Assembly: GCA_051313645.2 (NCBI GenBank)
Contig: JBNRSN020000020.1
Coordinates: forward strand, 93,186,001 to 93,250,000
DNA: 64,000 nucleotides
Reading direction: 5' to 3'
Source of the DNA: Centroscyllium fabricii
Taxonomy: Eukaryota
This document shows, piece by piece, positions 540-49,200 of this stretch. Position 1 is the first letter of the stretch; each line of letters begins with the position of its first letter. The notes under the pieces are model-generated. The model was not told the DNA's origin. It saw only the letters and a program-made list of their open reading frames with translations, and did not search any database. A program made the translations under genes and the position numbers.

Positions 540-3500
540 TGTAACCGTCAATAACGTCTTCGGAGTCGAATAGTTGGTTATAATAATCAGGCTTTTATTA
601 ACTACGTTAGCAATACACAACTGAGCTGACTGTCCCCAGAATGGCATGGGGGATGGGGGCAGTCGCTTATATACCTCCTCCAGCGGGGGAGGAGTCATGG
701 GCGGCGCCAGGTATGTTCCTGGGATCCCGTACAGGTATTACAGGGTATTACAGGTATTACAAGGTATTACAAGGTGATTCGTTATATACAGTGATATATG
801 GTTTATCACATTCACCCCTTCTTTAAAACAAAAGTACAGTGGGGTGAACAAAACACGGAAGTACAACGGGGTGAAAAAAAACTAATAATTACAAGGTGCT
901 CATTAACACAATATATACAATCAGAGTTCTTATGACTATAAATTCAGTCTGTCAGGCGGTTTCGTTATCCGCGCTGATCTTCGCACCGCTGGTGGTGCCT
1001 GTGGTGTTCGTTGTCGTGGAGTGGCTGGTTGTGTCGGTTGTTCCCTTGCTGCCGGTCGACTGGTGGTGGTTATATCACTTCTGGGTGGCGGTGATGCCCT
1101 TATTCTGACAGCAGGGGGCGCGTTCTCTCCTTCGTCCTCTGACTCTAGGGGGCGCGCGTTGTGGATCCAGGCTTGGGGCCGGGTCGTGCTGCTCGCAGGT
1201 GCCTTGTGGACATACTGGGGTACTGGGCCCACGTGTCGGGGCGTGTACTTCGGCCTCGGTGGCGCGGGGAGCGTCACAGGACGTTTTGGGAGCTCGGGCT
1301 ACCTGGCGGGGCTGGTTTTGGGGACTCCTGCTGGGGCTAGGTCCTTTATGGACACGGTGTCCTCCCTCCCGTCGGGGTACGCTATGTAAGCGTACTGGGG
1401 ATTGGCGTGCAGGAGGTGGACCCGTTCGACTAGGGGATCTGCCTTGTGTCCCCTCACATGCTTCCGCAGCAGGACCGGTCCCGGAGATAGCAGCCACGAT
1501 GGTAGCGAGGTCCCGGAAGCTGACTTCCTGGGGAAGGCAAAAAGTCTTTCGTGATGGGTGGCATTAGTGGCAGTGCACAGTAGGGACCGGATAGAGTGGA
1601 GGGCTTCAGGGAGAACGTCCTGCCATCGGGTGACTGGGAGGTCTTTGGACTTTAGGGCTAACTGGATGGCTTTCCAGACCGTGGCGTTCTCTCTCTCTAC
1701 CTGCCCGTTCCCCCGGGGGTTGTAGCTGGTAGTCCTGCTAGTCGCGATGCCTTTTGCTAGCAGGAACTGACGCAGCTCGTCACTCATAAAAGGGGCCCCC
1801 CGGTCACTATGGATATAGTTAGGGTACCCGAACAGGGAGAAGATGCTACTGAGGGCTTTGATGACGGTGGCTGAGGTCATGTCCTGGCAGGGTATGGCGA
1901 AGGGGAAACGGGAGTACTCATCTATAACATTGAGGAAATAGACGTTCCTGTTGGCTGAGGGAAGGGGCCCTTTAAAATCGACGCTGAGTCGTTCAAAGGG
2001 GCGAGTGGCCTTGATTAAGTGCGCCCGGTCGGGCCGGTAGAAGTGCGGCTTGCACTCCGCGCAGACCTGGCAGTTGCTGGTCATGGTCTTGACTTCTTCG
2101 ATGGAGTAGGGGAGGTTGCGGGACTTCACAAAGTGAACCAACCTGGTGACCCCCGGGTGGCAGAGGTCATTGTGAAGGGTTTGGAGACGGTCAGCCTGTG
2201 CGCTGGCACAGGTACCGCGGGATAGGGCGTCTGGGGGTTCGTTAAATATCCCGGGCCGGTACAAGATATCATAATTGAACGCCGATAGTTCAATTCTCCA
2301 CCTTAGTATCTTGTTGTTCTTGATCTTACCCCGCTCTTTGTTGTTGAACATAAAAGCGACTGAGCGTTGGTCAGTCAACAGGGTAAAACGCTTGCCGGCC
2401 AGGTAGTTCTTCCAGTGCCGCACTGCTTCAACAATGGCTTGGGCCTCCTTTTCAATTGAGGAATGGCGGGTTTCTGGGCCTTGGAGGGTACGTGAAAAGA
2501 AGGCCACGGGTCTGCCCGCCTGATTAAGGGTGGCGGCCAGGGCAAAGTCCGATACATCACTTTCCACTTGGAATGGGACGGACTCATCCACAGCGTGCAT
2601 TGTGGCTTTGGCGATGTCGTTTTTAATTCTGCAGAATGCCGAGTTGGCTTCTGCAGAAAGTGGGAAAGAGGTTGATTTTAATAGTGGGCGAGCTTTGTCC
2701 GCGTAATTGGGGACCCACTGGGCATAATAGGCAAAGAATCCCAAAATCCGTTTAAGAGATTTGGGGGAGTGGGGGAGGGGAAGCTCCATGAGGGGGCGCA
2801 TGCGGTCCGGGTCTGGACCGATGACTCCATTCTCCACCACGTTGCCGAGGATGGCAAGGCGGGTGGTGCTAAATACACATTTCTCCTTATTATACGTTAA
2901 ATTCAGGGCTTTGGCCGTGTGGAGAAATTTTTGGAGATTGGTGTTATGGTCCTGCTGGTCATGGCCGCAGATGGTCACGTTATCAAGGTACGGGAAGGTC
3001 GCTCGCAGCCTGTACCGATCAACCATTCGGTCCATCTCCCTTTGGAAGACCGAGACCCCGTTCGTGACTCCAAACGGAACCCTAAGGAAGTGGTAGAGGC
3101 GGCCGTCAGCCTCAAAGGCAGTATAGAGACGGTCCTCTGAGCGGTTGGGGAGCTGGTGATAAGCAGATTTAAGGTCAATGGTCGAGAACACTTTAAACTG
3201 GGCGATTTGGTTCACCATGTCCGCTATCCGGGGAAGGGGGTAGGCATCTAATTGGGTGAACCGGTTTATGGTCTGGCTGTAATCCACTACCATCCTATTC
3301 TTCTCCCCGGTTTTCACCACGACTACCTGTGCTCTCCAGGGGCTATTACTGGCCTCTATGACCCCTTCTTTTAGGAGGCGCTGCACCTCGGATTTTATAA
3401 ATGCCATGTCCCCAGCACTGTAGCGCCTACTCTTGGTGGCGACGGGCTTACAGTCTGGGGTGAGATTGGCAAAGAGGGATGGAGGGGCAACCTTAAGGGT

Positions 3501-5199
3501 TGAGAGACCACAGGTAGTGTACTGGGGGTGCCGCTTTGAGCCGCGGTTTGTGACCGTGAGAGGGGGAAGGGGTCCACCGAATGCCATTGTAACGCTCCGA
3601 AGATGGCACTGGAAATCCAGTCCCAGGAGTAGGGGGGCGCAGAGCTGCGGCAGCACGTAAAAACTAAAATCATTGAACATTGCGCCCTGTACATTAAGAG
3701 TTACAATACAGCGCCCGGTGACGTCAGCGGATTCTGACTTGGACGCCATAGATATTCTCTGGCGCGCAGGGATTACTTTAAGGGAGAGGCGCTTAACAGT
3801 ATTCTGGTGAACAAAACTTACTGTGCTCCCACTGTCGAACAGGCACACCACTTCTTCACCGTTAACTTCCACCGGCATCATCGACCTCTCCAGTGGCTGG
3901 ATTTTCCTCTGGTCTAGGCTCACGGATGCTAGTACCAGGTCCTCCAAAAAGTCTTGATCCGGAGAGTAGTTATCTTGGTCCGGAGAGTAGTTATCTTGAT
4001 CCGGAGAGTAGTCCTCCAGATCTGCTCCCCGAGATGGCTGCCGCCATGTGTTGCGCTGTTGAGTCCAAGATGGCCGCTGTTGCTGCCTCGAGTGCTGCCG
4101 AGTGGGGGATGGGTGAGCCCGATATTGCTGCTCCCCTGTTCCACACGCAGCGCTGCCCAGTCTTGATTTAGCATTTGGGCCTTTGCAAACCTTCGCATAG
4201 TGTCCCTTTTTGTCGCACTTGGAGCAGATCGCTTCTTTTGCGGGGCAGCTGCGTCTTGGATGCTGTGGTTGCCCACAGAAGTAGCATTTAGCTTTAGCGT
4301 GGGCCGCTGTGAGAAGTTCCTCTGGCGGTCTTTGCGCCAGTACTGTCCAAGATTGCGGGGCTGGGCCCGTATAGTTACTAGAGTAGGATGATAAATCCGT
4401 AGAGGCGCTATCTAGCGCGTGTCCCAAATCTGTAGTGGCCTGTAAGTCCTGGCCATTCTGCTCTAGCAGTCTTTGCCTAGCATAGTCCGATTTCAGGCCT
4501 GTTACATAGGCATCCCTGATGAGACTCTCCATATGCACTAGAGCCGTTTGCGCTCTGCAGTCACAGTCCTGTGCCAGAATTCTGAGGGCTCTTAGGAACT
4601 GCACACTCGACTCGTTATTCTGTTGTTTTCGGGTGGCGAGTATATGTCTCGCGTGGACTCTGTTTGGTGCCCGATTGTATTCCGCCTCGAGGATCCTGAG
4701 GGCTTCTTGGAATGATGGGGCGTCCACTATCATCGAATATACTTGCGGGCCCACCCGGGCGTGGAGGAGTCGTCGTTTTTGCTCCTCGGTCAGTATGACC
4801 GCTGCGTTGGCTCTAACGTATCCTTCAAGTACATTTCGCCAGTGTGAGAAAGCGTTTGATGCTCCAGGCGATCGGGGGTCAACTTCGAACACTGATGGTT
4901 TCAACATTGTAGTATCCATTTCCAGTCGTTAATAAAATTGTAACCGTCAATAACGTCTTCGGAGTCGAATAGTTGGTTATAATAATCAGGCTTTTATTAA
5001 CTACGTTAGCAATACACAACTGAGCTGACTGTCCCCAGAATGGCATGGGGGATGGGGGCAGTCGCTTATATACCTCCTCCAGTGGGGGAGGAGTCATGGG
5101 CGGCGCCAGGTATGTTCCTGGGATCCCGTACAGGTATTACAGGGTATTACAGGTATTACAAGGTGATTCGTTATATACAGTGATATATGGTTTATCACA
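540..5199 (-). mobile_element. Full-length Ty3/Gypsy LTR retrotransposon (element 1), young
   Basis: TG...CA LTRs at 540-810 and 4939-5199, differing by 1 substitution and one 10-bp AGGTATTACA unit. Flanks CCCAG/GCCAG (5-bp TSD, 1 mismatch). PPT AAAGAAGGGGTGAA next to the 3' LTR. Single gag-pol ORF. Confidence 0.97.
1299..4919 (-). CDS. Gag-Pol polyprotein of element 1 (two CCHC knuckles, protease, RT, RNase H, integrase)
   Basis: 1206-aa ORF with CYFCGQPQHPRRSC/CSKCDKKGHYAKVC, LFDSGS protease, RT YLDN, RNase H, HHCC zinc finger and DDE integrase (VDFKGP...SDRG...VEREN). A single TAG at 1299-1301 separates it from an in-frame Pro-rich tail running to 936. Confidence 0.93.
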   Translation of the reverse strand: MDTTMLKPSVFEVDPRSPGASNAFSHWRNVLEGYVRANAAVILTEEQKRRLLHARVGPQVYSMIVDAPSFQEALRILEAEYNRAPNRVHARHILATRKQQNNESSVQFLRALRILAQDCDCRAQTALVHMESLIRDAYVTGLKSDYARQRLLEQNGQDLQATTDLGHALDSASTDLSSYSSNYTGPAPQSWTVLAQRPPEELLTAAHAKAKCYFCGQPQHPRRSCPAKEAICSKCDKKGHYAKVCKGPNAKSRLGSAACGTGEQQYRAHPSPTRQHSRQQQRPSWTQQRNTWRQPSRGADLEDYSPDQDNYSPDQDNYSPDQDFLEDLVLASVSLDQRKIQPLERSMMPVEVNGEEVVCLFDSGSTVSFVHQNTVKRLSLKVIPARQRISMASKSESADVTGRCIVTLNVQGAMFNDFSFYVLPQLCAPLLLGLDFQCHLRSVTMAFGGPLPPLTVTNRGSKRHPQYTTCGLSTLKVAPPSLFANLTPDCKPVATKSRRYSAGDMAFIKSEVQRLLKEGVIEASNSPWRAQVVVVKTGEKNRMVVDYSQTINRFTQLDAYPLPRIADMVNQIAQFKVFSTIDLKSAYHQLPNRSEDRLYTAFEADGRLYHFLRVPFGVTNGVSVFQREMDRMVDRYRLRATFPYLDNVTICGHDQQDHNTNLQKFLHTAKALNLTYNKEKCVFSTTRLAILGNVVENGVIGPDPDRMRPLMELPLPHSPKSLKRILGFFAYYAQWVPNYADKARPLLKSTSFPLSAEANSAFCRIKNDIAKATMHAVDESVPFQVESDVSDFALAATLNQAGRPVAFFSRTLQGPETRHSSIEKEAQAIVEAVRHWKNYLAGKRFTLLTDQRSVAFMFNNKERGKIKNNKILRWRIELSAFNYDILYRPGIFNEPPDALSRGTCASAQADRLQTLHNDLCHPGVTRLVHFVKSRNLPYSIEEVKTMTSNCQVCAECKPHFYRPDRAHLIKATRPFERLSVDFKGPLPSANRNVYFLNVIDEYSRFPFAIPCQDMTSATVIKALSSIFSLFGYPNYIHSDRGAPFMSDELRQFLLAKGIATSRTTSYNPRGNGQVERENATVWKAIQLALKSKDLPVTRWQDVLPEALHSIRSLLCTATNATHHERLFAFPRKSASGTSLPSWLLSPGPVLLRKHVRGHKADPLVERVHLLHANPQYAYIAYPDGREDTVSIKDLAPAGVPKTSPAR

Positions 5200-6299
5200 G
5201 CCAGTACTACATTGAAGTAGCAGATTCGATCACATGCTTCAACCACCAACTTCCCATCGAGATATACTACAAAATTTATAAATAAAACCTGAAGGGTTTG
5301 AGTCAGGAGGATTTTTTTTTATCGCAACTGTCGCAGTTGTAAAAAGCTTGTTCCTGTTTTTCTGGTTGATTTTAAATTGAGTGAGTAAATGAATACACCA
5401 CAATATTTAGTTCAGTGTGCTCTCTGTCTCCTCAGCATCTGCTTTCAAGGGAAGAAAGAAAACAAAGGACACACACAATAGCCTAGAAATTTAGGTGTGC
5501 CTATTTTTAGGTATCTGGTGGGGTTGGGCGGGGGGGGGGGGGAAGGGTACAATCCCTATGCCTGAATGGTGAGGCCCGATGCGCCCCCAATATTGGGCCT
5601 CATTTCCTCCAAGCGGGTGAGCTGCGGCGAGTAAGAGGCTTCTTTCCCAGTGAAGCGTCACTGAAGATTGAGCAGCTGCGAGGCTAGCAGTGACCCTCAG
5701 GTAAGTGAGGAAGAGGGGCGATATTGAGGGGGTGGGGGGTGGTGAGATTAGTGGCTGGGGATTGGATTTGCTGGGGTTGGGTGTTTGGTCGGTGGAGGGC
5801 GGGGGGGCTTCAGTGGCCGTTTGAGGGTGGGGGGGCTGTATGGGACCATCCCAGGCTGCTTTACTGTGGGATCAGGAGGAATCCCGCTCCTCCCGGCTCC
5901 ACGTTCTGGTTAAGTATGGAGTCCTTCCTGCTGGTTAGTGCTACGTTGTGCTGTGAAAATTCAGCACGTGGCGAGTGAAGCCCTGGAGCATTCGAAAATT
6001 GAGAACTGGTCCCGCAAGAGGCACAGGGCCCTAACTCAAATAAATTATTACCGCTTTTGAATGTTCCCGACATGTGCTCCTGAAGCCCCCTCATCCAATA
6101 TAGTGGGCGGCGCACATCCAGCCGGAAATGTGCATCGGCTTCTTGCCAGAGACACGTTGATTGGGGCCATGTGCAGATGTCCATGTGGCATGCATTATGT
6201 AACTTATCCAGGAGCTGGAGAGTTAGGTCCTTGCTGCTTTGCTGCTGTTTTACTGGTGTATCTCTGTAGATGGCCAACAATAGTTTCCACAAAGTCAAA

Positions 6300-6755
6300 G
6301 CTCATGTCGTACGAGGAGAGATTGGGTCGACTGGGCCTCTATTCATGAGATTTTAGAAGAATGAGAGGGGATCTCATTGAAACGTATAAATTCTGACAGG
6401 GCGAGACAGACTGGATGCAGGGAGGCTGTTTCCCCTGGCTGGGGGGGTCTAGAATGAGGGGTCACAGTCTCAGGATACGGGGTAGGACATTTAGGACTGA
6501 GATGAGGAGAAATTTCTTCACTCAGAGGGTGGTGAATCTGTGGAATTCTCTACCACAGAAGGCTGTGGAAGCCAAGTCACTGAATATATTTAAGAAGGAG
6601 GTGGATAGATTTCTAGACACAAAAGGAGTTAAGGGGTATGGGGAGAGAGCGGGAATATGGTATTGAGATAAAGGATCAGCCATGATCATATTGAATGATG
6701 GAGCAGGCTCGAAGGGCCGAATGGCCGACTCCTGCTCCTATTTTTCTATGTTTGT
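6300..6755 (+). mobile_element. CR1 (HER1-like) LINE 3' end, 5'-truncated
   Basis: C-terminal RT-ORF peptide YEERLGRLGLYS...RGHSLRI...RNFFTQRVVNLWNSLP, then the shark CR1 tail GATCAGCCATGAT...GAATGG...CTCCTGCTCCTAT. Confidence 0.88.
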
Positions 6756-6906
6756 ACTGGCCTCTACTCCCGTATACCATGATGTCCTTTAATCACTTCA
6801 TCCATGCTTAAGAGCTTGGAGTGCGGGCGAGCCCGAGAGAATTCTCCAATAATCAGCATGTCCATCACCAGGGGCTGAGTCGGAGTGAGATAGCTGCGAG
6901 GCTGAA

Positions 6907-9900
6907 TGACGTATCGTCAATACCTTCGATTAAAAGAGTCGACGAGTAGTTACCGAAACTAAAGGCTTTTAATTGCTAAGAACGGAGCTACCCTCCGGAA
7001 CGAACTTCTGTACAGGAATGAGGAGCCTCGGTCAGATCTCACCTATAACGGGGCCTCACCTGGGGGAGGAGTTGGAGGTGTGGCTGACCTGGCTCCCAAC
7101 AGTGTCACAGTATACAGGGCTGTGCCTAACATCTGCACAGCCCATTATTAGCCATAATAATACAGTGGTAATGTTAACACAAAAGGGTTACCACATTCAC
7201 CCCTTCTTGAAAATTTTAAGTCCGGGGGGGGCGGGGGGTGAATGGGTCGAACAGTTCATGATAAGTCTGTCTGGCGGTCGTGTCTGCCTGGAGGACTGCC
7301 GGCGTTCCGGTGTTGGTGGTGGTGCCTCCTGGTTCGAATCGCCCGCATCTGCCGGTGCTGTGGCTACAGGTGGCGCTGGACTCGGCTGGTCCCCGCCGTC
7401 CGGGTCGTAGTTCAGTGCAGGCCACTGCTGGTGTTCGGGGAAACTCAGGGGCCATCGTGTGTCTGGTGGTTGATCGGCCTGCTGGCCGGCCGGGGGCTCT
7501 GCGGTGGTGCTTTCTGCGGGAGCCAGGTCCCTGATGGACACGGTGTCCTCACGCCCGTCCGGGAACTGCACGAAGGCGTAGTGCGGGTTTGCGTGTAGGA
7601 GCTGTACCTTGTCCACCAGGGGGTCTGTCTTGTGGCTCCGGACATGCCTTCTAAGCAAAACCGGCCCCGGAGTCGTCAGCCATGGCGGAAGGGCTGTCCC
7701 CGAAGTCGATTTCCTGTTGAAAGAGAAAATCAGATCGTGCGGGGTGGCGTTAGTGGCAGTACATAATAGAGAGCGTATAGAGTGCAGCGCGTCTGGGAGG
7801 ACTGCCTACCAATGTGACACTGGAAGGCCTCTGGACTTGAGAGCCAGGGTGACCGCCTTCCAAATGATCCCATTCTCCCTTTCTACCTGGCCGTTCCCCC
7901 GGGGGTTATAACTGGTCGTTCTGCTCGTGGCAACCCCTCTCTGGAGCAGAAACTGGCGCAGTTCATCGCTCATGAACGATGACCCCCGGTCGCTATGGAT
8001 GTAGCTGGGGAGACCGAAGATGGCGAACAGCATGGTGAAGTGTTTGATCACCGTTGCGCTCGTCATGTCTGGGCAGGGGAAGGCGAAGGGGAAGCGGGAG
8101 AACTCATCCACTACCGTGAGGAAGTATGAGTTGCGGTCGGTGGACGGGAGGGGGCCTTTGAAGTCCACGCTGAGACGTTCAAAGGGGCGGGTGGCCTTAA
8201 TGAGGTGCGCCGTGTCTGGCCGGAAAAAGTGGGGTTTGCACTCGGCGCAGACAGGGCACTCTCGGGTCATAGCCTTGATCTCCGTGATGGAGTAGGGGAG
8301 GCTACGGGACTTGACGAAGTGGGCGAGTCTGGTGACACCCGGGTGGCAAAGGCGGTCGTGGAGGTCCTTCAGCCGGTCTAGCTGGGCACTGGCGCACGTT
8401 CCCCTGGACAGTGCGTCCGGGGGTTCATTGAGTTTGCCTCGTCGGTAAAGAATGTCATACTCGTAAGTCGAGAGTTCGATCTGCCACCGCAGGATCTTAT
8501 CATTCTTGATTTTACCCCGTTGTTTATTGTTAAACATAAACGCCACCGACCGTTGGTCGGTGAGCAGGGTAAAACACTTACCGGCCAGGTAATGACGCCA
8601 GTAGCGCACGGACTCCATGATGGCCTGGGCCTCCTTTTCCACTGCTGAGTGGCGAGTTTCGGGTCCCTGTAGGGTGCGGGAGAAAAACGCTACGGGCCTG
8701 CCTGCCTGATTCAGGGTGGCAGCAAGGGCAAAGTCCGAAGCATCGCTCTCCACCTGGAAAGGGATGGATTCATCAATAGCGAGCATGGTCGCCTTGATAA
8801 TATCTTCCTTTATCCTTGCGAATGCCGTTTGGGCTTCTACAGAAAGGGGGAAGACGGCAGCCTTGAGGAGTGGTCTAGCCTTATCTGCGAACTGTGGGAC
8901 CCATTGTGCATAATAGGAGAAAAATCCTAGGCATCTCCTCAAGGCTTTGGGGTTGTGAGGTAGGGGCAGTTCTTGCAGGGGTCGCATACGCTGTGGGTCG
9001 GGGCCGAGGACCCCGTTCTCCACCACGTATCCAAGGATGGCGAGCCGGTCTGTATTAAAGACACATTTGTCTTTGTTATACGTAAGGTCCAGCTTGGCCG
9101 CCGTGTCGAGAAATTTGGCCAGATTGGCATCGTGGTCCTGCTGGTCGTGGCCGCAGATGGTCACGTTGTCCAGGTAAGGGAAAGTGGCCTGCAAGTCATT
9201 TTGGTCGACCATACGGTCCATCTCCCGTTGGAACACAGACACTCCGTTGGTCACGCCAAAGGGGACCCGGAGGAAGTGGTAGAGCCGACCGTTCGCCTCG
9301 AAGGCGGTGTAGGGGCGGTCGGCTTTCCGAATCGGGAGCTGATGATACGCCGATTTAAGGTCGATCGTGGAGAACACCTTGTACTGGGCGATCTGGTTGA
9401 CCATGTCTGAGATGCGGGGAAGGGGGTAGGCGTCGAGCCCGGTGTAGCGGTTGATAGTCTGGCTGTAATCGATAACCAGCCGCTGTTTCTCGCCAGACTT
9501 CACCACTACAACTTGGGCGCGCCAGGGGCTGGTGCTGGCTTCAATTATCCCCTCCTTCAGCATCCGCCCGACCTCCGACCTGATAAACGTGCGATCCCCC
9601 TCACTGTACCGCCGACTCTTAGTAGCAATGGGTTTGCACTTCGGATCGAGGTTGGCGAACAGCGAGGGGGGGTCGATTTTCAGGGTGGAGAGGCCGCAGG
9701 CCGGGCTCCGCTTTGGGAAGAGATTGTCCTGGCTACTGACGGTGAGGGGGGGCAAGGTCCCGCCGAACTCCATTGTCACGCTCCTGAAGTGGCACTGGAA
9801 GTCCAAACCTAGTAAGGCTGGGGCACACAACTGCTGGAGGGTATACAATTTAAAATTACGGTACACGCGCCCCTTGACGGTGAGCGTGACGGAGCAGTAG

Positions 9901-11633
9901 CCGGTGACGTCCGCGGTGTGGGACTGTGAAGCTAGGGAGACTTGGTAGTTGGTGGGCAGGACCTGCAGTCCGCAGCACCGCACTGTATCGGGGTGTACGA
10001 AACTCTCCGTGCTGCCTGTGTCGAAAAGGCAGTCGACAGTGTAGTCATTAATCTTAATCGGCATTATGGAGTTAGACAGGTTATGAGGCCTGTCCTGGCT
10101 AACTCTGATTCTGGTTGCCGCAGCCCCTGCTGATCGGGGCTGTGCACAAGATGGCGGCGCCCCTGGCTCGCGCATGGTGGGGCCCTGGGTACAAGATGGC
10201 GGTGCCCCAGGCTCGCACATGGAGGGGCCCTGGGTACAAAATGGCGTCGCCGAGGGGACGCTCATGGTGGGGCCCTGTGAACGCGCTGGCGGCGCCCGTG
10301 ATTCGCACGCAGCGGACCGCGGTGGTCGGGTTGGCGGTGCCCGTGATTCGCACGCAGCGGGACACGGTGGTCGGGTTGGCGGTGCCCGTGATTCGCACGC
10401 AGCCGGCCGCGTTGGGGGGTCGCGCTCGGCCGGCCTTTGCCGCATCGGGGTGGGGGGATGGGGGCGCTTGTTGTCTACCCCGTACCGTCGCTGGATCGCG
10501 CTGCTATTGCAGCTTACCTGGTGTCTGTCGGTGCTCTCACAGGCTGCACTGTTGTACCTTGGGTTGGGCGCTGCTGGAGCTGATCTGCAGGCTTTAGCGT
10601 AGTGTCCCTTCTTAGCACATTTCTCGCAGGTCGCTGTCCTGGCTGGGCATTTCGCTCTTGGGTGCAGTCCCTGGCTGCAGAAATAGCAGCGTTTATCTTT
10701 ATTGGCCGTCGTGGCCATCGTGAGGGCCTCGGCCCGTTGTGGTGCTGCCCAGGCCTGGGCCTGTTGTGGCGCGGCCCATATGTTGTAGGCTTGCGGGTTA
10801 GTGCCGCTGTACGCCTGTAACTTGTTTCGGGCCCCCTCTACTGATTTGGCTATCTTAGTCGCCTCCTCGAGGGATAAATCGTCTTTCTCTAGTAGCCGCT
10901 GGCGGGCTTCCACACACCTCAGTCCCGTAACGTAAGCGTCCCGAACGAGGAGTTCTGCCTCCTCTTCAGCTGTTCTGACTTGGCAGCCACAGACTCGTAC
11001 CAAGGCCAGGAGCGCTTGCTCGAACTCCTCATTGGACTCACCCGGTAGCTGAGATCTGGTCGCAAGCACATGGACCGGGCGCTCATAGTATTTTCGCAAT
11101 AGTCGTACGGCCGCTGTGTAGGTTGAGGCGTTCCTGATGAGGGTGAATACCCTGCTGGAGATTCTCGACCGTAGGACCTGCAATTTGTTCCTGTCCGATG
11201 TAGGCTTGGCGGCGTCCATGTAGGCCTCCAGGAGGCCGAACCAGTGTTCGTACGTGGTAGCAGCGGCAGGGTCCTGGGGACTGATGTCCAGCTTCTCAGG
11301 TTTAACTGCGCTGCTCTCCATTTTAAAAATAATTAGCAATTAAAATTGACGTATCGTCAATACCTTCAATTAAAAGAGTCGACAAGTAGTTACCGAAACT
11401 AAAGGCTTTTAATTGCTAAGAACGGAGCTACCCTCCGGAACGAACTTCTGTACAGGAATGAGGAGCCTCGGTCAGATCTCACCTATAACGGGGCCTCACC
11501 TGGGGGAGGAGTTGGAGGTGTGGCTGACCTGGCTCCCAACAGTGTCACAGTATACAGGGCTGTGCCTAACATCTGCACAGCTCATTATTAGCCATAATAA
11601 TAGTGGTAATGTTAACACAAAAGGGTTACCACA
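6907..11633 (-). mobile_element. Full-length Ty3/Gypsy LTR retrotransposon (element 2), same family as element 1
   Basis: LTRs 6907-7195 and 11347-11633 (3 substitutions, one 2-bp indel). Perfect 5-bp TSD CTGAA (6902-6906, 11634-11638). PPT AAGAAGGGGTGAA. Confidence 0.97.
7806..11321 (-). CDS. Gag-Pol polyprotein of element 2, premature stop in integrase C-terminal region
   Basis: ATG at 11321 (MESSAVKPEKLD), two CCHC, LFDTGS, YLDN, RNase H, integrase. TAG at 7806-7808, with the frame continuing in ORF 7197-7658. Confidence 0.9.
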   Translation of the reverse strand: MESSAVKPEKLDISPQDPAAATTYEHWFGLLEAYMDAAKPTSDRNKLQVLRSRISSRVFTLIRNASTYTAAVRLLRKYYERPVHVLATRSQLPGESNEEFEQALLALVRVCGCQVRTAEEEAELLVRDAYVTGLRCVEARQRLLEKDDLSLEEATKIAKSVEGARNKLQAYSGTNPQAYNIWAAPQQAQAWAAPQRAEALTMATTANKDKRCYFCSQGLHPRAKCPARTATCEKCAKKGHYAKACRSAPAAPNPRYNSAACESTDRHQVSCNSSAIQRRYGVDNKRPHPPTPMRQRPAERDPPTRPAACESRAPPTRPPCPAACESRAPPTRPPRSAACESRAPPARSQGPTMSVPSATPFCTQGPSMCEPGAPPSCTQGPTMREPGAPPSCAQPRSAGAAATRIRVSQDRPHNLSNSIMPIKINDYTVDCLFDTGSTESFVHPDTVRCCGLQVLPTNYQVSLASQSHTADVTGYCSVTLTVKGRVYRNFKLYTLQQLCAPALLGLDFQCHFRSVTMEFGGTLPPLTVSSQDNLFPKRSPACGLSTLKIDPPSLFANLDPKCKPIATKSRRYSEGDRTFIRSEVGRMLKEGIIEASTSPWRAQVVVVKSGEKQRLVIDYSQTINRYTGLDAYPLPRISDMVNQIAQYKVFSTIDLKSAYHQLPIRKADRPYTAFEANGRLYHFLRVPFGVTNGVSVFQREMDRMVDQNDLQATFPYLDNVTICGHDQQDHDANLAKFLDTAAKLDLTYNKDKCVFNTDRLAILGYVVENGVLGPDPQRMRPLQELPLPHNPKALRRCLGFFSYYAQWVPQFADKARPLLKAAVFPLSVEAQTAFARIKEDIIKATMLAIDESIPFQVESDASDFALAATLNQAGRPVAFFSRTLQGPETRHSAVEKEAQAIMESVRYWRHYLAGKCFTLLTDQRSVAFMFNNKQRGKIKNDKILRWQIELSTYEYDILYRRGKLNEPPDALSRGTCASAQLDRLKDLHDRLCHPGVTRLAHFVKSRSLPYSITEIKAMTRECPVCAECKPHFFRPDTAHLIKATRPFERLSVDFKGPLPSTDRNSYFLTVVDEFSRFPFAFPCPDMTSATVIKHFTMLFAIFGLPSYIHSDRGSSFMSDELRQFLLQRGVATSRTTSYNPRGNGQVERENGIIWKAVTLALKSRGLPVSHW

Positions 11634-14169
11634 CTGAATCACTCAGGATCAAAAAAAAAAGAGTAACCATTAACAAGGAAAGGAAACCGACCTGTATATT
11701 TTATCTCCTATCAGTTACTATACAAATCATATATGAAAAATGTTTTAGTGTTACATTTGTTCAAAATTTATTTTTAAAAATTATTTTATGGAATCAGGAC
11801 ATCGCTGGCAAGGCCCAGCATTTAATGCCCATCCTTAGTTGCCCTTGAGAAGGTGGTGGTGAGCCACCTTCTTGAACCGCTGCAGTCCATGTGGTGAAGG
11901 TACTCCCACAGTGCTGTTCGGGAGGGAGTTCCAGGATTTTGAGCCAGCGATGATGAAGGATCGACGATATATTTCTCAGTCAGGACAATGTGTGACTTGG
12001 AGGAGAACTTGGAGGTGGTGGTGTTCCCATGCGCCTGCTGCACTTTACCTTCTAGGTGGAAGAGGTCGCGGGTTTGGGAGGTACTGCCGAAGAAGCCTTG
12101 GCGAGTTGCTGCAGTGCAAGTTGTAGATGGTACACACTGCAGCCACGAAACGCTGGTGGTAGAGGGAGTGAATGTTTAAGGTGGTGGATGGGGTGCCATT
12201 CAAGTGAGCTGCTTTGTCCTGGATGGTGTTGAGTTTATTGAGTGTTGTTGGAACTGCACTCATCCAGGCAAGTGGAGAGTATTCCATCACACTACTTACT
12301 TGTGCCTTGTATATGGTGGAAAGGCTTTGTGGAGTCAGGAGGTGAGATACTTGCCGCAGAATACCTTGCTTCTGACCTGCTCTTATTGCCACAGTATTTA
12401 TGTGGCTGGTCCAGTTAAGTTTCTGGTTAATGGTGACCCCCAAGATGTTGATAGTGGGGGATTTGGCGATGGTAATGCCATTAAATGTCAAGTGGAGGTG
12501 GTTAGACTCTCGCTTGTTGGAGATAGTCATTGCCTGGCACTTCTGTGGCATGAATATTACCTGCCACTTATCAGCCCAAGCCTGAACGGCATCCAGGTCT
12601 TGTTGCATGCGGGCATGGACTGCTTCATTAGCCTTGATGCTAGACTCTGTCAAATGCTGCCTTGATGTCAAGGGCAGTCACTCTCACCTCACCTCTTGAT
12701 TTCAGCTCCTTTGTCCATGTTTGGACCAAGGCTGTAATGAGGTCGGGAGCCGAGTGGTCTTGGCGGAACCCAAACTGGGCATCAGTGAGCAGGTTATTGG
12801 TGATTAAGTGCCACTTGATAGCACTGTCGATGACACCTTCCATCACTTTGCTGATGATTAAGAGAAGACTGATGGGGCGGTAATTGGCTGGGTTTGATTT
12901 GTCCTGCTTTTTGTGGACAGGACATACCTGGACAGTTTTCCACATTGTCGGATAGATGCCAGTGTTGTAGCTGTAGTGGAACAGCTTGGCTAGTTCTGGA
13001 GCACAGGTCTTCAGCACGATAGCTGGGATGTTGTCGGGGCCCATAGCCTTTGCTGCATCCAGTGCACTCAGCCGTTTCTTGATATCACGTGAAGTGAATC
13101 GAATTGGCTGAAAAATGGCTTCTGTGAAGGTGGGGACCTCTGGAGTAGGCCGATACGGACCATCCACTTGGCACTTCTGGCTGAAGTTGGTTGCAAACTC
13201 TTCAGCCTTGCCTTTTGCACTCACGTGCTGGGCTCCACCATCATTGAGGATGGGGATATTCTTGGAGCCTCCTCCTCCTGTTAGTTGTTTAATGGTCCAC
13301 CACCATTCACGCCTGGATGTGGCAGGGCTGCAGAGCTTTGATCTGATCTGTTGATTGTAGGATCGCTTAGCCCTGTCTATAGCATGCTGCTTCTGCTTTT
13401 TAGCATGCATGTAGTCCTGTGTTGCAGCTTCCCAAGGTTGGCACCTCATTTTTAGGTACACCTGGTGGTGCTCCTGGCATGCTCTTCTACACTTGTTGTT
13501 GAACCAGGGTTCGTCCTCTGGCTTGATGGTAATGGCAGAATGAGGGATATGCCGGGCCAGGAGGTTACAGATTGTGGTGGAATAAAATTCTGCTGCTGCT
13601 GCTGGCCCACAGCGCCTCATTGATGCCCAGTTTTGAGCTGCTAGATCTGTTCTGAATCTGTCCCATTTAGCACAGTGGTAGTGCCACGCAACACGATGGA
13701 AGGTGTTCTCAGTGTAAAGACGGGACTTTGTCTCCACAATGACTGTGCGGTGTTCACTGCTACCAATACTGTCATGGACAGATGCATCTGTGGCAGGTAG
13801 ATTGGTGAGGATGAGGTCAAGTAAAATTTTCCCTTGTGTTGGTTCACTCACCACCTGTCGCAGGCCCAGACTGGCACTTATATCCGTCAGGACTCGGCCA
13901 GCTCGGTCAGTGGTGGTGCCACCGAGCCACTCTTGGTGATGGACATTGAAGTCCCCCACCCAGAGTACATTTTATGCCCTTGCTACTCTCCGTGCTTCTT
14001 CCAAGTGGTGTTCAACATGGAGGAGTACTGATTCATCAGCCGAAGGAGGTTGGTAGGTGGTAATCAGCCGGAGGTTTCCTTGCCCATGCTTGGCCTGAAG
14101 CTATGAGACTTCATAGGGTCTGGAGTCAATGTTGAGGACTCCCAGGGCCACTCCCTCCCAACTGTATAT

Positions 14170-30455: not shown

Positions 30456-30737
30456 TGTGGTAACCGTCATTACTATCTGTATATAGTTGTGGGTTCATCG
30501 GCGGGCCTTGTACACTGTGGGGTCACATATGGATGTATTTACCTGTATACTGTATGTAAGGCCAGGTCAGCCACACCTCTAACTCCTCCCCTCAGGTGGG
30601 AGCTTATAGGTGAGGGCCGCCCTGCCCCCGCTCATTCTCGCCTTGAACTCGACTGGAGACTAGCTCCATTATAAGTTAATAAAAGCCTATAGTTAAGGTA
30701 ACTACTCGTCTTTCTTGTCTTGATTGACGATACGTCA
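30456..30737 (+). mobile_element. Solo LTR of the Gypsy family of elements 1-3
   Basis: TGTGGTAACC...TACGTCA, perfect 5-bp TSD ATTAC, strongly similar to 43120-43400. Confidence 0.92.
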
Positions 30738-31284: not shown

Positions 31285-32524
31285 CAGAACATAGAACATA
31301 GAACATACAGCACTGTACAGGCCCTTGGGCCCTCAATGTAGTGCCGCCCTTATTCCGTCTCTGATTTTTCCTGTCCCCCCTACTCTTCCTTCCCCTCCAT
31401 GTACCTGTCTATCATCCTTTTAAAAGCTCCCAGACTGTCCACATCCACTATTTCAGATGGTAGCCTATTCCACTCCCCGACCACTCTCTGCGTAAAGAAC
31501 TTGCCCCTGCCATCCCTTCTGAATCTTCCTCCTTGAATCTTGTGCTCGTGCCCTCTTGTTGTCGTTCTTCCCACCCGGGGAAACAGTCTCTGCACGTTTA
31601 CTCTATCGATCCCCTTCATCATCTTGAACGTCTCTATTAAGTCCCCCCTCTTCCTTCTCCGCTCCAGGGAGAAGAGTCCCAGCTCCCTCAACCTCTCCTC
31701 GTACGACTTTCCCCCCATTCCCGGCAGCATCCTGGTGAATCTCCTCTGCACCCTCTCCAACGCCTCCACATCCCTCCTGTAGTACGGTGCCCAGAACTGT
31801 ACACAGTACTCCAAGTGTGGTCTCACCAGTGACCTGTACAGCTGTAGCATGACCTCCCGGTTCTTAAACTCTATTCCCCTGTTGATGAAGGCCAATACAC
31901 CATAGGCCTTTTTTACTGCCTTATCCACCTGGGTGGCAGCCTTCAATGATCTGTGTACATATACTCCCAGATCCCTTTGCTCCTCTGTTTCGCTCAGGAC
32001 CCTCCCGTTGACCCTATATTCCCTATTCCTATTTGTCCTTCCGAAGTGTATCACCTCGCATTTCCCCATGTTGAACTCCATTTGCCATTCTTCAGCCCAG
32101 CTCTGCATCCTATCTATATCCCTCTGAAGCCTTCTACTTCCTTCCTCCTCATCCACTACTCCCCCAATCTTTGTGTCATCTGCAAATTTGCTGACCCACC
32201 CCTCAGTCCCCTCCTCCAAGTCATCGATAAAGATTACAAACAGTAGTGGCCCCAACACCGACCCCTGTGGCACCCCACTGGTGACCGGTCTCCAACCCGA
32301 GTATTGGCCCTCTACCACTACCCTCTGCTTTCTCTGAGCCAGCCAGTTCTCAATCCATCCCACTACTTCATTGTTTACCCCGCAACTCCTTATTTTCTTC
32401 ATGAGTCGACCGTGCGGGACCTTGTCGAACGCCTTGCTGAAGTCCATATATATGACATCAACCGCCTTTCCCTCGTCCACACACTTGGTCACCTCTTCAA
32501 AGAATTCTATCAGGTTGGTCAGGT
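31285..32524 (-). mobile_element. Young CR1 LINE 3' portion with uninterrupted RT frame
   Basis: ORF 31380-32492 (DFSKAFDKVPH, GVPQGSVLGPLLF, KFADDTK) and TGTTCTA-repeat tail. Confidence 0.92.
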
Positions 32525-33079
32525 TAGTTTTGACAAATTGTCCGACCCCAAAACGTCAACTCTCTTTCTCTCCACCGATGCTGCCGGGCCTGCTGAGTTT
32601 TTCCAGCATTTTCTGTTGTTATTTCGGACTTCCAGCATCTGCAGTATTTTGCTATCGTACAAGTACTTTTGAATGTACTGCTGTAATATAGGAATTGTGG
32701 CATTCAATTTGCGCACAGCAAGGTCCCACAAACAGATAATCTGTTTTTTTAGTGATGTTGTTAATAGGATAAATATTGGCCAGGCCTCTAAGGAGAACTC
32801 CCCTGCTCTTGTTGGAAAATTGCCATGGGATCTGTTACTTCCACCTGAGAGGGCAGATGGGCCCTTGGTATAATGTCTCATCTTTATTTTTATTCGTTCC
32901 TGGGATGTGGGCGTCGCTGGCAAGGCCAGCATTTATTGCCCATCCCTAGTTGCCCTTGAGAAGGTGCTGGGGAGCCACCTTCTTGAACCACTGCAGTCCC
33001 TGTGGTGAAGGTGCTCCCACGGTGCTGTTAGGGAGGGAGTTCCAGGATTTTGACCCAGCGACGATGAAGGATCGGCGAT

Positions 33080-39510: not shown

Positions 39511-39611
39511 AATAAATGAGTTTCACCCCTTATGACAAAATTATTAAAGAACATTTAATCTCTCACATGGAAGCAGTGCCAATCAAAACACCAGCAATGA
39601 GAACATTGTAC

Positions 39612-42500: not shown

Positions 42501-42903
42501 CATAGAAACATAGAAGATAGGAGCAGGAGTAGGCCATTCGGCCCTTCGAGCCTGCTCCGCCATTCAATGAGATCATGGCTGATCATCCAAACCCAGTATC
42601 CCGCCCCCGCCCTCTCCCCATATCCCTCGATCCCGCTCGAGCCTGCACCGACACATATCCCACCCTATCCCCGCAACCCCACATATTCAATCCCCCTAAC
42701 ACTAAGGGTCAATTTATCCTGGCCAATCAACCTAACCCGCACATCGTTGGACTGTGGGAGGAAACCGGAGCACCCGGAGGAAACCCACGCAGACACGGGG
42801 AGAATGTGCAAACTCCACACAGATAGTACCCGAGGCTGGATTTGAACCCGGATCTCCAGTGCTGTGAGGCAACAGTGCTAACCACTATGCCACCGTGCCG
42901 CCC
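42501..42903 (-). mobile_element. HE1-type V-SINE (inserted in a CR1 3' fragment)
   Basis: Same three-part structure. Confidence 0.9.
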
Positions 42904-45675
42904 TTTGTGTGAAGAAGTGTTACCTGACATCACCCTCAAGATGTGCTTCAGTTGCCTTGACAGATCTGGAGGCACCCTTCAGTACTCACCATTCAGGGTC
43001 TCTAGAATGATCGTGGTTTGCTGCGCTCGGCACGACATTGCCCAGCAGCGAGATTGGAGCTACAGGAGGAACAAGGCGCCGAGCACACATTGTCCACGGA
43101 CGAATCCGAGAGGGAGGAGTGTGGTAACCGTATTACCACTTGTATATAGTTGCTTGTATAGTTGCGGGTGCATGGGCGGGACTTCTACACTGTGGGGTCA
43201 CTTATGTATAGATACTGTATGTAAGGCCAGGTCAGCCACACCTCTAACTCCTCCCCTCAGGTGGGAGCTTATAGGTAAGGTCTACCTTGCCCCCGTTCAT
43301 TCTCGCCTTGTGCTCGACTGGAGATTAGCTCCATTATAAAGTTAATAAAAGCCTGTAGTTAAGGTAACTACTCGTCTTTTGTATTATGGAGGATACGTCA
43401 ATTTTATTAACTTTATTTTTAAAATGGAGAGTAACGCAGTGAAACCGGACAGACTGGATATAAATCCACAAGAACCAGATGCTGCTAACAATTTCGAACA
43501 TTGGTACGGCCTAGTCGAGGCCTACATGAAGGCCGCAAAGGCAACGAGTGACGAGGACAAACTGCAGGTCCTCTCGTCAAGAATCAGCAGCCGGGTGTAC
43601 TCCTTCATCCGCGGCCTCACAACATACACGGAGGCGGTGAAAAAGTTGAAGGACTGCTACTTGCGCCCGGTCCACTCGGTCTATGCCAGACATGTCCTGG
43701 TGACCAGACAACAGCGACTCGGCGAGTCAAATGAACAATTCCTTTTGGCGCTTCAAGCCCTCGCACGGGCCTGCGACTGCCAGCGAAGAACGGCGCAGGA
43801 GGAGACGAATCTTATCGTACGGGACGCATACGTGGCTGGAATCAGGTCCAACCAGGCCTGCCAGCGGCTGCTGGAAAAGGACACTCTGTCACTGGAAGAG
43901 GCAATCTCGATTTCGAATGCGGTGGATGGAGCGCGCCGCAAGCTAGAGGCTTATGGCGGCCAGGGCCCACATGATAACCTCGATCCCTGGGCGCCACCAC
44001 GACGGGTCGAGACCCCATGATGGCAGCGGCAGCTGCGAAGACGCCGGCGGGGCGAAAGTGCTACTTCTGCGGCCAGGGACAACACCCGCGAGCGCAGTGC
44101 CCCACGAAGAGCGAGACCTGCGAGCAGTGCACCAAAAAGGGACACTACGCCAGAGCCTGCAAGTCGACCCCAGCGTCCAGCTCCAGACCCAACAGCGCGG
44201 CCTGTGAGAACTCCCAACGCCATCCCATGGCCTAAGGCAACATGTTGCAGCGCGACCCAGCAGCGGTCCGGGGGTAAATCGCGGGCGATTCAGTCCCCCA
44301 TATCTGTACGGCGGAGGCCGGCTGCGCGCGCGGCACAGGCGCCGCCACCCCAGAGGCGACAGCGGCCGGCCATGTGCGAACCACGGCCGCCGCCACCTCG
44401 TCCACCGCGGTCCGCCGTGTGCAAATCACGGGCACCGCCACCTCGTCCACCGCGGTCTGCCGCGTGCGAATCACGGGCGCCGCCATCTCATCCACCGCGG
44501 TCCGCCGCGTGCGAATCACGGGCGCCGCCATCTCATCCACCGCGGTCCGTCGCGTGCGAATCACGGGCGCCGCCATCTTGTCCACCGCGGTCAGCCGCGT
44601 GCGAACCACGGGCGCCGCCATTTTGTCCACAACAGCCAGACTCAAACGTGCTGCCAGCGCCGCCATCTTGTGAGCGGCCATCCTGCCAACTGCCCAGGCT
44701 GTTTTTTGAACATGGAGAGCAGCGCAGTAAAACCGGATCGCCTTGATATCAACCCTCAGGCGCCCGATGCTGCGAACAATTTCGAACATTGGTTTGGCTG
44801 TGTCGAGGCCTACATGAAGGCTGTGAAAGTGACCAGCAATGAGGACAAATTACAAGTACTGGCATCCAGGATCAGCGGCCGGGTGTATTCCTTCATCAGA
44901 GACATCAAGACCGATAAAGAAGCTGCCAAGAAGCTGAAGGACAGCTATATGTGCCCGGTCCACTCGGTTTACGCCAGACACATATTGGCGACCAGAAGGC
45001 AACAGCTGGGTGAGTCAAACGAAGAATTTTTGTTAGCGCTCCAAGCCCTCGTACGGGCCTGCGACTGCCAGGCAACGACGGCAGAGGAAGGGGCCAACCT
45101 CCTGGTCCGCGATGCGTCTGTAGCAGGACTCAGGTCCAGCCAGGCCCGACAACGGCTGCTGGAACAAGAGACTCTATCGCTCGAGTCCGCTATCACGCTG
45201 TCTAATGCGGTGGACGAAGCGCTCAAGCGTATGGACGCTTACAGGGACAATGACTCTCACGCAGGCCCACCTAACCTCTGGGCACCGCAGACAACAGCAG
45301 CGGCAGCTGCGAAGACGCCGGCGGGTTCCAAGTGCTACTTCTGCGGCCAGGCAAAACACCCGCGAGCGCTGTGCCCCGCGAGGAACGCGACCTGCGCATG
45401 GTGCGGGAAGAAGGGACATTTTGCGAAAGCTTGCAAATCCAGCCCGACCGCAAGACCCAACAGCGCGGCCTGTGAAGCCAACGATGCCACTCTGTGGCCA
45501 CAGGTACGGTGCTGCAGCGCGACCCAGCAGCGGTCAGCTGGGTGCAAATCGCAGGCGTCGCCATCCCCTTTAAAATCACAGCGGCAGCCAGCCGCGCGCG
45601 CGGCACAGGCGCCGCAATCGTCAGCGCGACCGCGGCCGGCCATGTGCGACCCACCAGCGCCACCATCTTCCACAC

Positions 45676-46230
45676 AGCGGTCAGCCGCGTGCAAACCACG
45701 GGCGCCGCCATCTTGCCCACAGCGGTCAGCCGCGTGCGAACCACGGGCGCCGCCATCTTGACCACAGCGGTCAGCCGCGTGCGAACCACGGGCGCCGCCA
45801 TCTTCCCCACAGCGGTCGGCCGCGTGCGAACCACAGGCGCCGCCATCTTGCCCACAGCGGTCAGCTGCGTGCGAACCACGGGCGCCGCCATCTTGCCCAC
45901 AGCGGTCAGCCGCATGCGAACCACGGGTGCGGCCATCTTGCCCACAGCGGTCAGCCACGTGCGAACCGCGGGCGCCGCCATCTTGACCACAGCGGTCAGC
46001 CGCGTGCGAACCACGGGTGCTGCCATCTTGCCCACAGCGGTCAGCCGCGTGCGAACCACAGGCGCCACCATCTTGCCCACAGCGGTCAGCCGCGTGTGAA
46101 CCGCGAGCGCCGCCATCTTGCCCACAGCGGTAAGCCGCATGTGATCCACGGGCGCCGCCATCTTTGCCGCGGCCGCCATGTTACCCTCGGCGGTCAGCCG
46201 CGTGCGAATCACGGGCGCCGCCATCTTTGC
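45676..46230 (+). repeat. 45-bp tandem repeat (about 12 units) in the gag-protease linker
   Basis: Unit CAGCGGTCAGCCGCGTGCGAACCACGGGCGCCGCCATCTTGCCCA (QRSAACEPRAPPSCP). Shorter arrays at about 44370-44625 and 10140-10410. Confidence 0.9.
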
Positions 46231-49200
46231 CATAACAATGGCTAGACACGTGCGAAATGCCAGCGGCGCCATCTTCGGAGCGGCCATCTTGCCACTCGCC
46301 CCAGACGGGGCCCCAGCGAGCGGAGGGCCCCCACACACACACAACGTCGGCCTCAGCCACAGTCGATCAGGCCAGGCCGCACGCCTTATCCAACTCCATG
46401 ATGGGGATCAAGGTGGAGAGGCACACCACTAACTGCCTGTTCGACACCGGTAGCACAGAGAGCTTTATTCACCCCGACACAGTGCGGCGCTACGCACTGC
46501 AGACCCAGCCCATGCATTCCCAAATCTCCCTAGCCTCAAAGTCCCACACGGCGGACATCACCGGCTACTGCAGCGTCACGCTCACCATCAGGGACCGCAC
46601 TTACCGTAATTTTAAGCTGTCCGTTCTCCCGCAGCTGTGCGCCCCATTATTACTGGGACTGGATTTCCAGTGTCACGTGAAGAGCGTGACGATGGAATAT
46701 GGTGGGTCCCTGGCCCCCCTCACCGTCAGTAGCCGGGACGGTCCCGACCTAACGCGGCGCTCGACTTGCGGCCTGTCCACACTGAAAGTCGACCCCCCCT
46801 CGCAGTTTGCCAACCTCGACCCCGAGTGCAAACCCATTGCAACCAAAAGTCGGCGGTACAGTGCAGGGGACCGTGCGTTTATCGGGTCGCAGGTCGAGCG
46901 CCTGCTAAAAGAAGGGATCATTGAGGCCCGCACCAGCCCTTGGAGAGCCCAGGTCGTGGTGGTTAAGACAGGCGAGAAACTGCGCATGGTCATAGACTAT
47001 AGTCAGACGATTAACCGCTACACCGGGCTCGACGCCTACCCCCTCCCCTGCATCTCGGATATGGTAAACCAGATCGCCCAGTACAAGGTCTTCTCCACAA
47101 TTGACCTCAAGTCGGCGTATCACCAGCTCCCCATCCGGAATTAGGACCGCCGGTACACCACCTTCGATGCGAACGGCTGGCTCTACCACTTCCTCCGGGT
47201 CCCCTTCGGCATGACCAACGGAGTGTCGGTCTTCCAACGGGAGATGGACCGGATGGTTGACCAAAACGAGTTGCAGGACACTTTCTCCTACCTGGACAAC
47301 GTGACCATCTGCGGCCATAACCAGCAGGGCCACGATGCCAACCTCGCCAAATTCTTTAACGGCCAAACGGCTGAACCTGACGTATAATAAGGACAAGTGC
47401 GTCTTTAGTACGGACTGGCTCGCCATCCTCGGCTACGTGGTGGAAAACGGGGTCCTCTTCCCCGATCCCCAACGTATGCGTCCCCTGCAGGAGCTGCCCT
47501 TACCCCACAATCTCAAAGCCCTGAAGAGATGCCTGGGGTTTTTCTCCTATTACGCACAATGGGTTCCCCAGTATGCGGATAAGGCATCCTCAAGGCCGAC
47601 GTCTTCCCACTCCTGTCAGAAGCCCAAACGGCATTCGCCCAGATCAAGGAAGACATCATCAAGGCGACCATGCATGTCGTTGATGAGTCCATCACCTTCC
47701 AGGTGGAAAGTGATGCATCGGACTTTGCCCTCGTCACCACCCTCAACCAGGCGGGCAGGCCCGTAGCGTTCTTCTCCCGGACCCTACAGGGACCCGAAAT
47801 TCGCCACTCCGCAGTGGAAAAGGAGGCCCAGGCTATTGTGGAGGCAGTGCGCTTCTGGCGCCACTACCTGGCTGGTAAGAGATTTACCCTAATCACCGAC
47901 CAACGGTTGGTGGCGTTTATGTTTAACACTAAACAGCGGGGTAAAATTAAGAATGATAAGATCCTTCAGTGGTAGATCGAGCTCTCGACGTACGAGTACG
48001 ACATTCTTTACCGGCCAGGTAAGCTTAACGAGCCCCCGGACGCATTGTCCAGGGGAACGTGCGCCAGCACCCAGCTTGACCGGCTGCAGGACCTCCACGA
48101 TCGCCTCTGCCACCCGGGTGTCACCAGACTCGCCCACTTCGTCAAGTCCCGCAGCCTCCCCTACTCCATCTCGGAGATCAAGGCTGCGCTGAATGCAAAC
48201 CCCAAATTTACAGGCCAGACAGGGCGCACATCATCAAGGCCACCCGTCCCTTCGAGCGCCTGAGTGTGGAACCCTCCCCTCCACTGACCGCGACTCGTAT
48301 TTTCTCACGGTCATCGACGAGTTCTCCCGCTTCCCCTTTGCCTTCCCCTGCCCAGATATGACGAGCTCAACGGTGATCAAACACTTCACCACGCTGCTCG
48401 CCATTTTCTGTCTCCCCAGCTACATCCACAGCGACCGGGGGTCATCGTTCATGAGTGACGAGCTGCGTCAGCTTCTGCTCCAGAAGGGGATTGCCTCGAG
48501 CTGAACGACCAGTTACAACCCCCGGGGGAACGGCCAGGTAGAAAGGGAGAACGGGGCTATCTGGAGGGCGGTCACCCTGGCCCTGAAGTCCAGAGGCCTT
48601 CCAGTATCCCGTTGGCAGCAGGTCCTCCCCGACGCGCTCCATTCCATCCGCTCTCTGCTACCAATGCCACACCTCACGAACAATTGTTTTCCTTCCCCAG
48701 GAAATCGACTTCGGGGACACCGCTCCCGCTGTGGCTGACCACCCCGGGGCCAGTCCGGCTTAGGAAGCATGTCCACAGCCACAAGACGGACCCCCTGGTG
48801 GAACGGGTGCACCTGCTAAACGCCAACTCGCAATATGCGTACGTGGCATACCCAGACGGGCGCGAAGACACAGTCTCAATCAGGGACCTGGCGCCCACCG
48901 GGACCACGATCACGGAACCCCCGGTTGAGCCTCAGCTCCACCAGCCACCACCCAGCGAACACTGGTCCCCATACACACACACACCGAGGCCCTGGACATC
49001 AACGGGCGACGAACAGAGGTCAGACATTGCACCGCTGCCACCATTGGCGGACAACACGACCCCGACCCCGCGACCAGAACCACCATCACCGGCACCCCGT
49101 CGGTCCCTCAGGCAGACACGTCCACCCGAGAGACTGATCACAGAAGGTTAAATTGCCAACTGTGTTAACGCACGTTCAGCCCGCCGGACTCATTTTTAAA

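Follow-up and report, generated by a model that had tools for sequence, protein, structure and literature searches.

Reverse transcriptases (RTs) in which the last Asp (D) of the YxDD motif is naturally replaced by Asn (N) have been described in the nematode Bel/Pao elements (Belpaoviridae) Cer7–Cer12 and in Atlas, where the motif reads YVDN (PMC554778, PMC9094657); whether these enzymes work was left open in 2005 (PMC554778). The same replacement inactivates the RTs of HIV-1 and murine leukaemia virus (MLV) (PMC554778). In Ty1, the mutant D211N polymerises 223-fold slower, prefers Mn2+ and loses transposition, of which RNase H suppressors restore 5–10%; in vitro, Asn at this site keeps polymerase activity, while Glu (D211E) does not, and mutants of the third Asp of Ty3 are cited as showing flexibility at the site (PMC2148107). 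As to priming, the Tf1 transcript pairs through its first 11 bases and an RNase H cut makes the primer (PMC7175516). Here, we analysed 64,000 nucleotides of the genome of the shark Centroscyllium fabricii (GenBank assembly GCA_051313645.2, contig JBNRSN020000020.1, positions 93,186,001 to 93,250,000 of the forward strand; hereafter the window), containing three long terminal repeat (LTR) retrotransposons of the Ty3/gypsy type, elements 1 to 3, whose RT motif reads YLDN. This motif is a real, ancient and selected feature of these elements. We consider it highly probable that they are Ty3/gypsy elements with an Asn-bearing RT that likely copies their own RNA, that the D/N site toggles near-neutrally, and that their tRNA-free priming is a separate trait.

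In element 1 (540..5199, minus strand) the motif is encoded by TAC CTT GAT AAC at 2990-2979 on the minus strand (Y647–N650, numbered stop-to-stop); in element 2, which belongs to a related family (6907..11633, minus strand), and in element 3 (43190..49876, plus strand) the codons are TAC CTG GAC AAC, at 9176-9165 on the minus strand and 47289-47300 on the plus strand, respectively. All three lie in the RT frame, confirming what had been read from the sequence alone. Pfam places protease (PR), RT, RNase H and integrase (IN) domains in a single frame of elements 1 and 2, in the order gag-PR-RT-RNaseH-IN, with gag zinc knuckles visible in the translation; the LTRs begin with TG and end with CA, and a polypurine tract and 5-bp target-site duplications, as in Ty3/gypsy elements, are present. 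The RT is closest to the Ty3 RT structure 4OL8, both by sequence (E 2e-36) and by the fold of an AlphaFold model (E 2e-31; mean pLDDT 85.8), which has the motif on the usual beta-hairpin. No Pfam chromodomain was retrieved from the scanned frames of elements 1 and 2, the tail of element 1 past its stop lying outside the scan, and the element 1 family is without an env frame. The nearest named proteins come from sharks and rays. The single frame of about 1200 codons and the LTRs near 250 bp presumably fit Cigr-1, a likeness of general layout and not of compared sequences. The Cigr-1 clade of Ty3/gypsy, whose founding element is from Ciona, is recorded in tunicates and molluscs; YLDN and the priming site go unmentioned in the searched text and supplements of that paper (PMC6238403). 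Selgy is a plant lineage and proved irrelevant.

None of the three window copies keeps the full frame of the family, so that the window alone is no proof of mobility, and the claim is carried by genome-wide counts. These were obtained by a pattern search of the whole 7.2 Gb genome with identical flanks for YLDN, YLDD and YLDS, the last serving as a control for A>G at the next base. The search returned 222,611 YLDN sites, i.e., about one per ~32 kb, versus 445 for YLDD and 489 for YLDS; a pattern anchored upstream, and thus independent of the downstream flank, gave 215,589 N sites (138 of them from another gypsy family) versus 387 D sites. Within the first 100 YLDD matches, 30 belong to one separate old family; the leaders of eight further matches with readable LTRs come from several different subfamilies, and in one subfamily D was found in two of the first 100 matches. 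The in-family YLDD copies, no commoner than the YLDS control, are thus background mutation. The other gypsy family, which a motif suggests to be chromovirus-like, mirrors this pattern, with about 15,300 D sites (15,661 less 387) versus 138 N; there, the D-to-N change arises but does not spread. Moreover, YLDN is read in all 20 long-frame siblings of element 1 that were retrieved, which had been picked by frame length among the matches to a YLDN-bearing query; three have identical LTRs and 13 carry an exact 5-bp duplication in their flanks. YLDN is the amplifying state of the family in this genome. The sequence-only reading, which took YLDN for the mobile state rather than for decay, is thereby borne out, and the possibility that most copies carry YLDD is contradicted by both pattern designs. 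Provided that the majority of copies are nearly complete, the family would occupy at least a tenth of the genome.

The same counts bear on the idea that the genomic Asn is turned into Asp after transcription or translation, either by A-to-I editing of the AAC/AAU codon or by deamidation of Asn, so that a working YLDD enzyme results. The change from AAY to GAY is indeed what A-to-I editing produces. Nevertheless, edited genomic RNA would fix G in new insertions, and D copies are no commoner than the A>G control; furthermore, Asn before Val or Ile deamidates slowly. We give this explanation scarcely any credence.

Only one D family of the clade to which the YLDN elements belong was seen in this genome (L061–L070). 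It is small and old, is placed by the tree described below outside the N group of the shark, has the same fold-back leader as the N elements, and shows LTR pairs 95–97% alike and, in 10 copies, no motif-bearing frame longer than 543 codons.

Whether the Asn enzyme is active was approached through the constraints on its sequence. Over the polymerase core (218 codons), elements 1 and 2 differ by a nonsynonymous divergence (dN) of 0.126, with synonymous divergence (dS) saturated; five unsaturated between-family pairs gave dN/dS ratios of 0.05–0.11 over the same core, and closer subfamily pairs gave 0.09–0.25. One near-identical pair had a ratio of 0.89, which matches the decay expected after insertion. 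On these ratios, purifying selection acts on the polymerase core. The Asp of motif A (D585 in element 1, 3174..3176, minus strand) and the first Asp of the YLDN motif were found in 120/120 homologues, among which the last position of the motif is N in 98 and D in 22; the motif-A Asp is kept in 166/168 N rows, and the acidic residues of RNase H are conserved. The amplified Asn state, the purifying selection and the retained aspartates together make it very likely that the YLDN RT is active in cis.

The opposite possibility is that the polymerase with YLDN is inactive and that the frame persists only to supply protease, RNase H and integrase, while a foreign RT copies the RNA in trans. The effect of D-to-N on HIV-1 and MLV RT (PMC554778) and on Ty1 transposition (PMC2148107) speaks for it, and the roughly 15,300 YxDD sites of the other gypsy family could represent a helper. 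However, the selective constraint on the polymerase core speaks against copying in trans, the catalytic residues are kept in N rows across saturated synonymous distances, N elements exceed the candidate helper by about 14 to 1, and the in-clade D family is small, old and without long frames. A dead polymerase thus appears very improbable. Two premises of the sequence-only reading need tempering: D-to-N is damaging in that it inactivates HIV-1 and MLV RT, but Ty1 D211N still polymerises, and to call the second Asp of the motif almost invariant was an overstatement, natural YVDN having already been described in nematode Bel/Pao elements.

The history of the site was examined in representatives clustered at 50% identity, where 64 in-clade rows comprised 23 N, 40 D and 1 other residue, while all 63 more distant gypsy rows were D (0/63 N). 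A tree of 261 RT-RNase H rows was then built with the last column of the motif excluded; locus rows bearing neither D nor N (seven in the 50%-identity set) were left out, the row labelled L074 represents the adjacent N element, and three D rows are single-copy shark mutants. The clade contains 168 N rows, 78 D rows and 1 other, its basal rows are D with one exception, and the tree needs 24 D/N changes, at least 11 of them forced by well-supported branches. Monophyly of the N rows was rejected (approximately unbiased test, p-AU 7e-36, on 42 rows picked after the tree was seen). The nested D lineages are multi-member families: five D and five N clusters were uniform among their readable members, bar one YLDM. 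A D-seeded search added 97 new rows, 85 D, 11 N and 1 unread. The site thus tolerates Asp or Asn and hardly any other residue, in keeping with Ty1, in which polymerase activity survives Asn but not Glu (PMC2148107).

No RT-RNase H column switches together with D/N, and the independent-pair tests listed, on at most 10 pairs, were all non-significant. Thr two places past the motif, considered as a compensator, was rejected, being present in 93% of N, 90% of D and 24% of basal rows and missing in several N rows; it marks the crown group (T652 in element 1), as do V621, G624 and L716. A CpG-driven pressure from D to N likewise found no support, the first Asp codon being GAC in 5/13 D loci and 22/50 N loci. 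Other RT signatures are clade-wide (element 1 numbering): R532, Q534, S551, a Gln following the RNase H Asp853 (Q854), and, behind the fingers "DY", the absence of the customary Arg along with a one-residue insertion (residues 532-554).

These data are consistent with the following scenario. The two retained aspartates, with the Asn side chain as a stand-in third ligand, would serve catalysis; an early change in the RT-RNase H background of the clade, spread over several residues, would have made the third carboxylate dispensable; and the shape of the third residue would still be required, so that the toggle between Asp and Asn would be near-neutral.

Some observations sit badly with this scenario. 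Because Ty1 D211N is 223-fold slower and transposes only with RNase H suppressors (PMC2148107), compensation would be expected, but no co-switching column was found. The 20 siblings were, as said, selected in a way that favours YLDN. In the shark clade, with its 27 N rows and three single-copy D mutants, no D family has been amplified, which near-neutral toggling leaves unexplained. Nor does it explain the distribution among hosts, given that the named arthropod rows are D in 17/18 cases (1 unread) and the named cnidarian or elasmobranch rows are N in 8/8, both sets being hand-picked. More broadly, the named nematode and arthropod members are D and those from corals, anemones, sharks and rays are N, in a hand-picked sample in which ancestry is uncontrolled.

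A rival explanation is that selection favours Asn in certain hosts or lineages (sharks, rays, cnidarians), the enzyme being active and the toggle adaptive; for instance, a slower or excision-poor polymerase might suit the RNase H rate, the metal supply or host control. Beside the host pattern, this would agree with the lack of an amplified D revertant in the shark N families, although D is one transition away, and with in-family D copies being no commoner than the YLDS control. On the other hand, D families repeatedly have N families as close neighbours, this very genome has amplified an old D family from the clade, and the host pattern may merely reflect the ancestry of the sampled lineages. 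We regard an adaptive Asn as possible, though doubtful, and retain the near-neutral toggle as the preferred explanation.

As to priming, the leader at the primer-binding position begins 0–1 base past the CA of the LTR in nearly all copies and lacks the TGG of the tRNA type. In element 1 the leader (4928..4937, minus strand) pairs with a stretch of the 5' LTR (4992..5001, minus strand; 5001-4992 in reading order) that ends at the A-run of an AATAAA; the pairing spans 10 nt in the window copy and 13 in its siblings. In element 2 the leader (11333..11345, minus strand) pairs over 13 nt with 11419-11407, the target being an ATTAAA variant, and both sides of the pairing differ from those of element 1. 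In element 3, the leader belonging to the front part (43402..43416, plus strand) pairs over 15 nt with 43336-43350. Among 44 LTR-paired copies, 34 showed an exact pairing of at least 10 nt between the leader and an LTR stretch ending in an A-run; six paired over 6–9 nt, three did not pair and one was without a called end. In 22 hand-picked distinct junctions the pairing covers 9–18 nt, a length that no more than 4 of 2000 single-base shuffles reached, and its two sides change together. The target ends at an A-run 23–65 nt before the end of the LTR. The control, element 4 (tRNA-type), has a 4-nt pairing only. Since folding z-scores were mixed (0.61, -2.77, -2.22, -0.95), the case for the pairing is built on its position and on the two-sided sequence change, not on energy.

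The leader is thus complementary to the element's own LTR RNA at the primer-binding position, with no tRNA site, as in Tf1. By analogy with that element, an RNase H cut just past the paired A-run would free the primer, after the leader has folded back onto the LTR stretch. The target is probably internal and not at the 5' end of the transcript, because in element 1 it lies about 65 nt downstream of a TATA-like word at 5072-5066. Masking of the poly(A) signal as the sole role of the hairpin was discarded, the target being GTTAAA or TTTAAA instead of AATAAA in L122, L125 and L126; it may be a second role.

The sequence-only reading had proposed that YLDN is co-adapted with this unusual priming, and in all 19 hand-picked N rows with a tested 5' junction a fold-back of 9–18 nt is present. 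However, three D lineages carry the same fold-back: the old shark family (15 nt; L063, L070), L132 (14 nt), and a third in which the LTR of L174 pairs with the leader of L192, two copies of one clade, over 11 nt. No co-segregation between YLDN and fold-back emerged, the site toggling repeatedly in a clade that keeps the fold-back wherever readable. In addition, the RTs of Tf1/Sushi and of the plant TAR elements keep YxDD. Both groups are reported to be self-priming (PMC6317226, PMC7175516). Co-adaptation is therefore improbable and already largely refuted; this priming occurs in D as well as in N members and does not account for the Asn.

The structure of the window copies is as follows. Element 1 (5' LTR 5199-4939, 3' LTR 810-540) has flanks CTGGC/CTGGG, matching at 4/5 positions, and a single gag-PR-RT-RNaseH-IN frame (1299..4919, minus strand) that ends prematurely in the C-terminal tail, with 1209 codons versus 1330–1348 in long sibling copies. 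Element 2 (5' LTR 11633-11347, 3' LTR 7195-6907) has an exact 5-bp target-site duplication, TTCAG; its frame starts at 11321 and is interrupted by an in-frame stop at 7808-7806, within the integrase region. The LTR pairs of these two elements are near-identical, as had been read from the sequence, with 1 mismatch and a 10-nt length difference (261 versus 271 nt) in element 1, and 3 mismatches and 2 gap columns in element 2. Element 3 is a broken composite of mixed parts, with two gag starts, LTRs of only ~74% likeness and non-matching flanks: a 5' LTR at ~43190-43400 and a gag front are followed by 45-nt repeats, a second gag from ~44700 and a frameshifted pol up to ~48920, and the 3' LTR (49211-49876) comes from another subfamily and is split by an insertion. 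In elements 2 and 3, the linker between gag and protease contains the 45-nt tandem repeats, which vary in copy number (44225-44680, 45540-46240 and 10150-10415). Further LTR copies, at 30547-30737 and 51692-51882, are related to the element 3 5' LTR and are probably solo or truncated. Element 4, the control, is an unrelated gypsy element (54322-59116, plus strand) with YLDD at 56382-56393, a tRNA-type TGG primer site and no fold-back, LTRs 98% identical and a 4-bp duplication, CTAG. The window also holds RT fragments of non-LTR retrotransposons (12045-13971, 31380-32555 and 62490-64000) and dispersed repeats of 130–300 nt in many copies.

With regard to previous knowledge, no report of YxDN in Ty3/gypsy was found in the open literature, subscription papers and Repbase/GyDB entries being outside its reach; the literature on variant motifs (YLDN, YXDN, YMDN, YVDN) yielded Bel/Pao cases only, and titles and abstracts disclosed no paper on self-priming in this clade. 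A natural YxDN in another superfamily and its biochemical rationale are already known; what is new is the scale, the fact that a Ty3/gypsy lineage has switched repeatedly, and the availability of natural D/N pairs. The role of the third Asp of RT has so far been argued from engineered mutants lacking mobility, whereas closely related natural D and N sister enzymes make the role of the residue, and its compensation, testable without engineering. Moreover, filters that demand YxDD before an element is called intact would discard the very abundant family of this genome.

A bolder version can be formulated, which as a whole we hold to be rather unlikely: a whole animal Ty3/gypsy lineage would have remodelled its polymerase to need no more than two aspartates, Asn being preferred in sharks and cnidarians and the enzyme differing in its kinetics (a changed use of metals or no pyrophosphorolysis); internal self-priming beside the poly(A) signal would be a second, independent form of self-priming; and such elements would have written a tenth or more of a 7-Gb genome.

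In comparison with the systems mentioned at the beginning, the shark elements share with the Bel/Pao YVDN elements a natural Asp-to-Asn change at the last YXDD position in intact LTR elements, but the latter belong to another superfamily, whereas the shark elements are of the Ty3/gypsy type, without an env frame, and their clade has switched between D and N repeatedly. An origin independent of the Bel/Pao YVDN is likely, the best matches among solved structures being with Ty3 RT, although the tree held no Bel/Pao reference. With Tf1/Sushi they have in common the lack of a tRNA site and a leader that pairs with the element's own LTR-derived RNA; they differ from Tf1 in that the target is 9–18 nt long, ends at an A-run and is probably not at the 5' end of the transcript, and from the Tf1/Sushi chromoviruses in that Pfam found no chromodomain in elements 1 and 2. 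Finally, Ty1 D211N and the third-Asp mutants of Ty3 concern the same position and the same residue, but those laboratory mutants lose mobility, whereas in the shark family N is the state that has been amplified to more than 200,000 copies.

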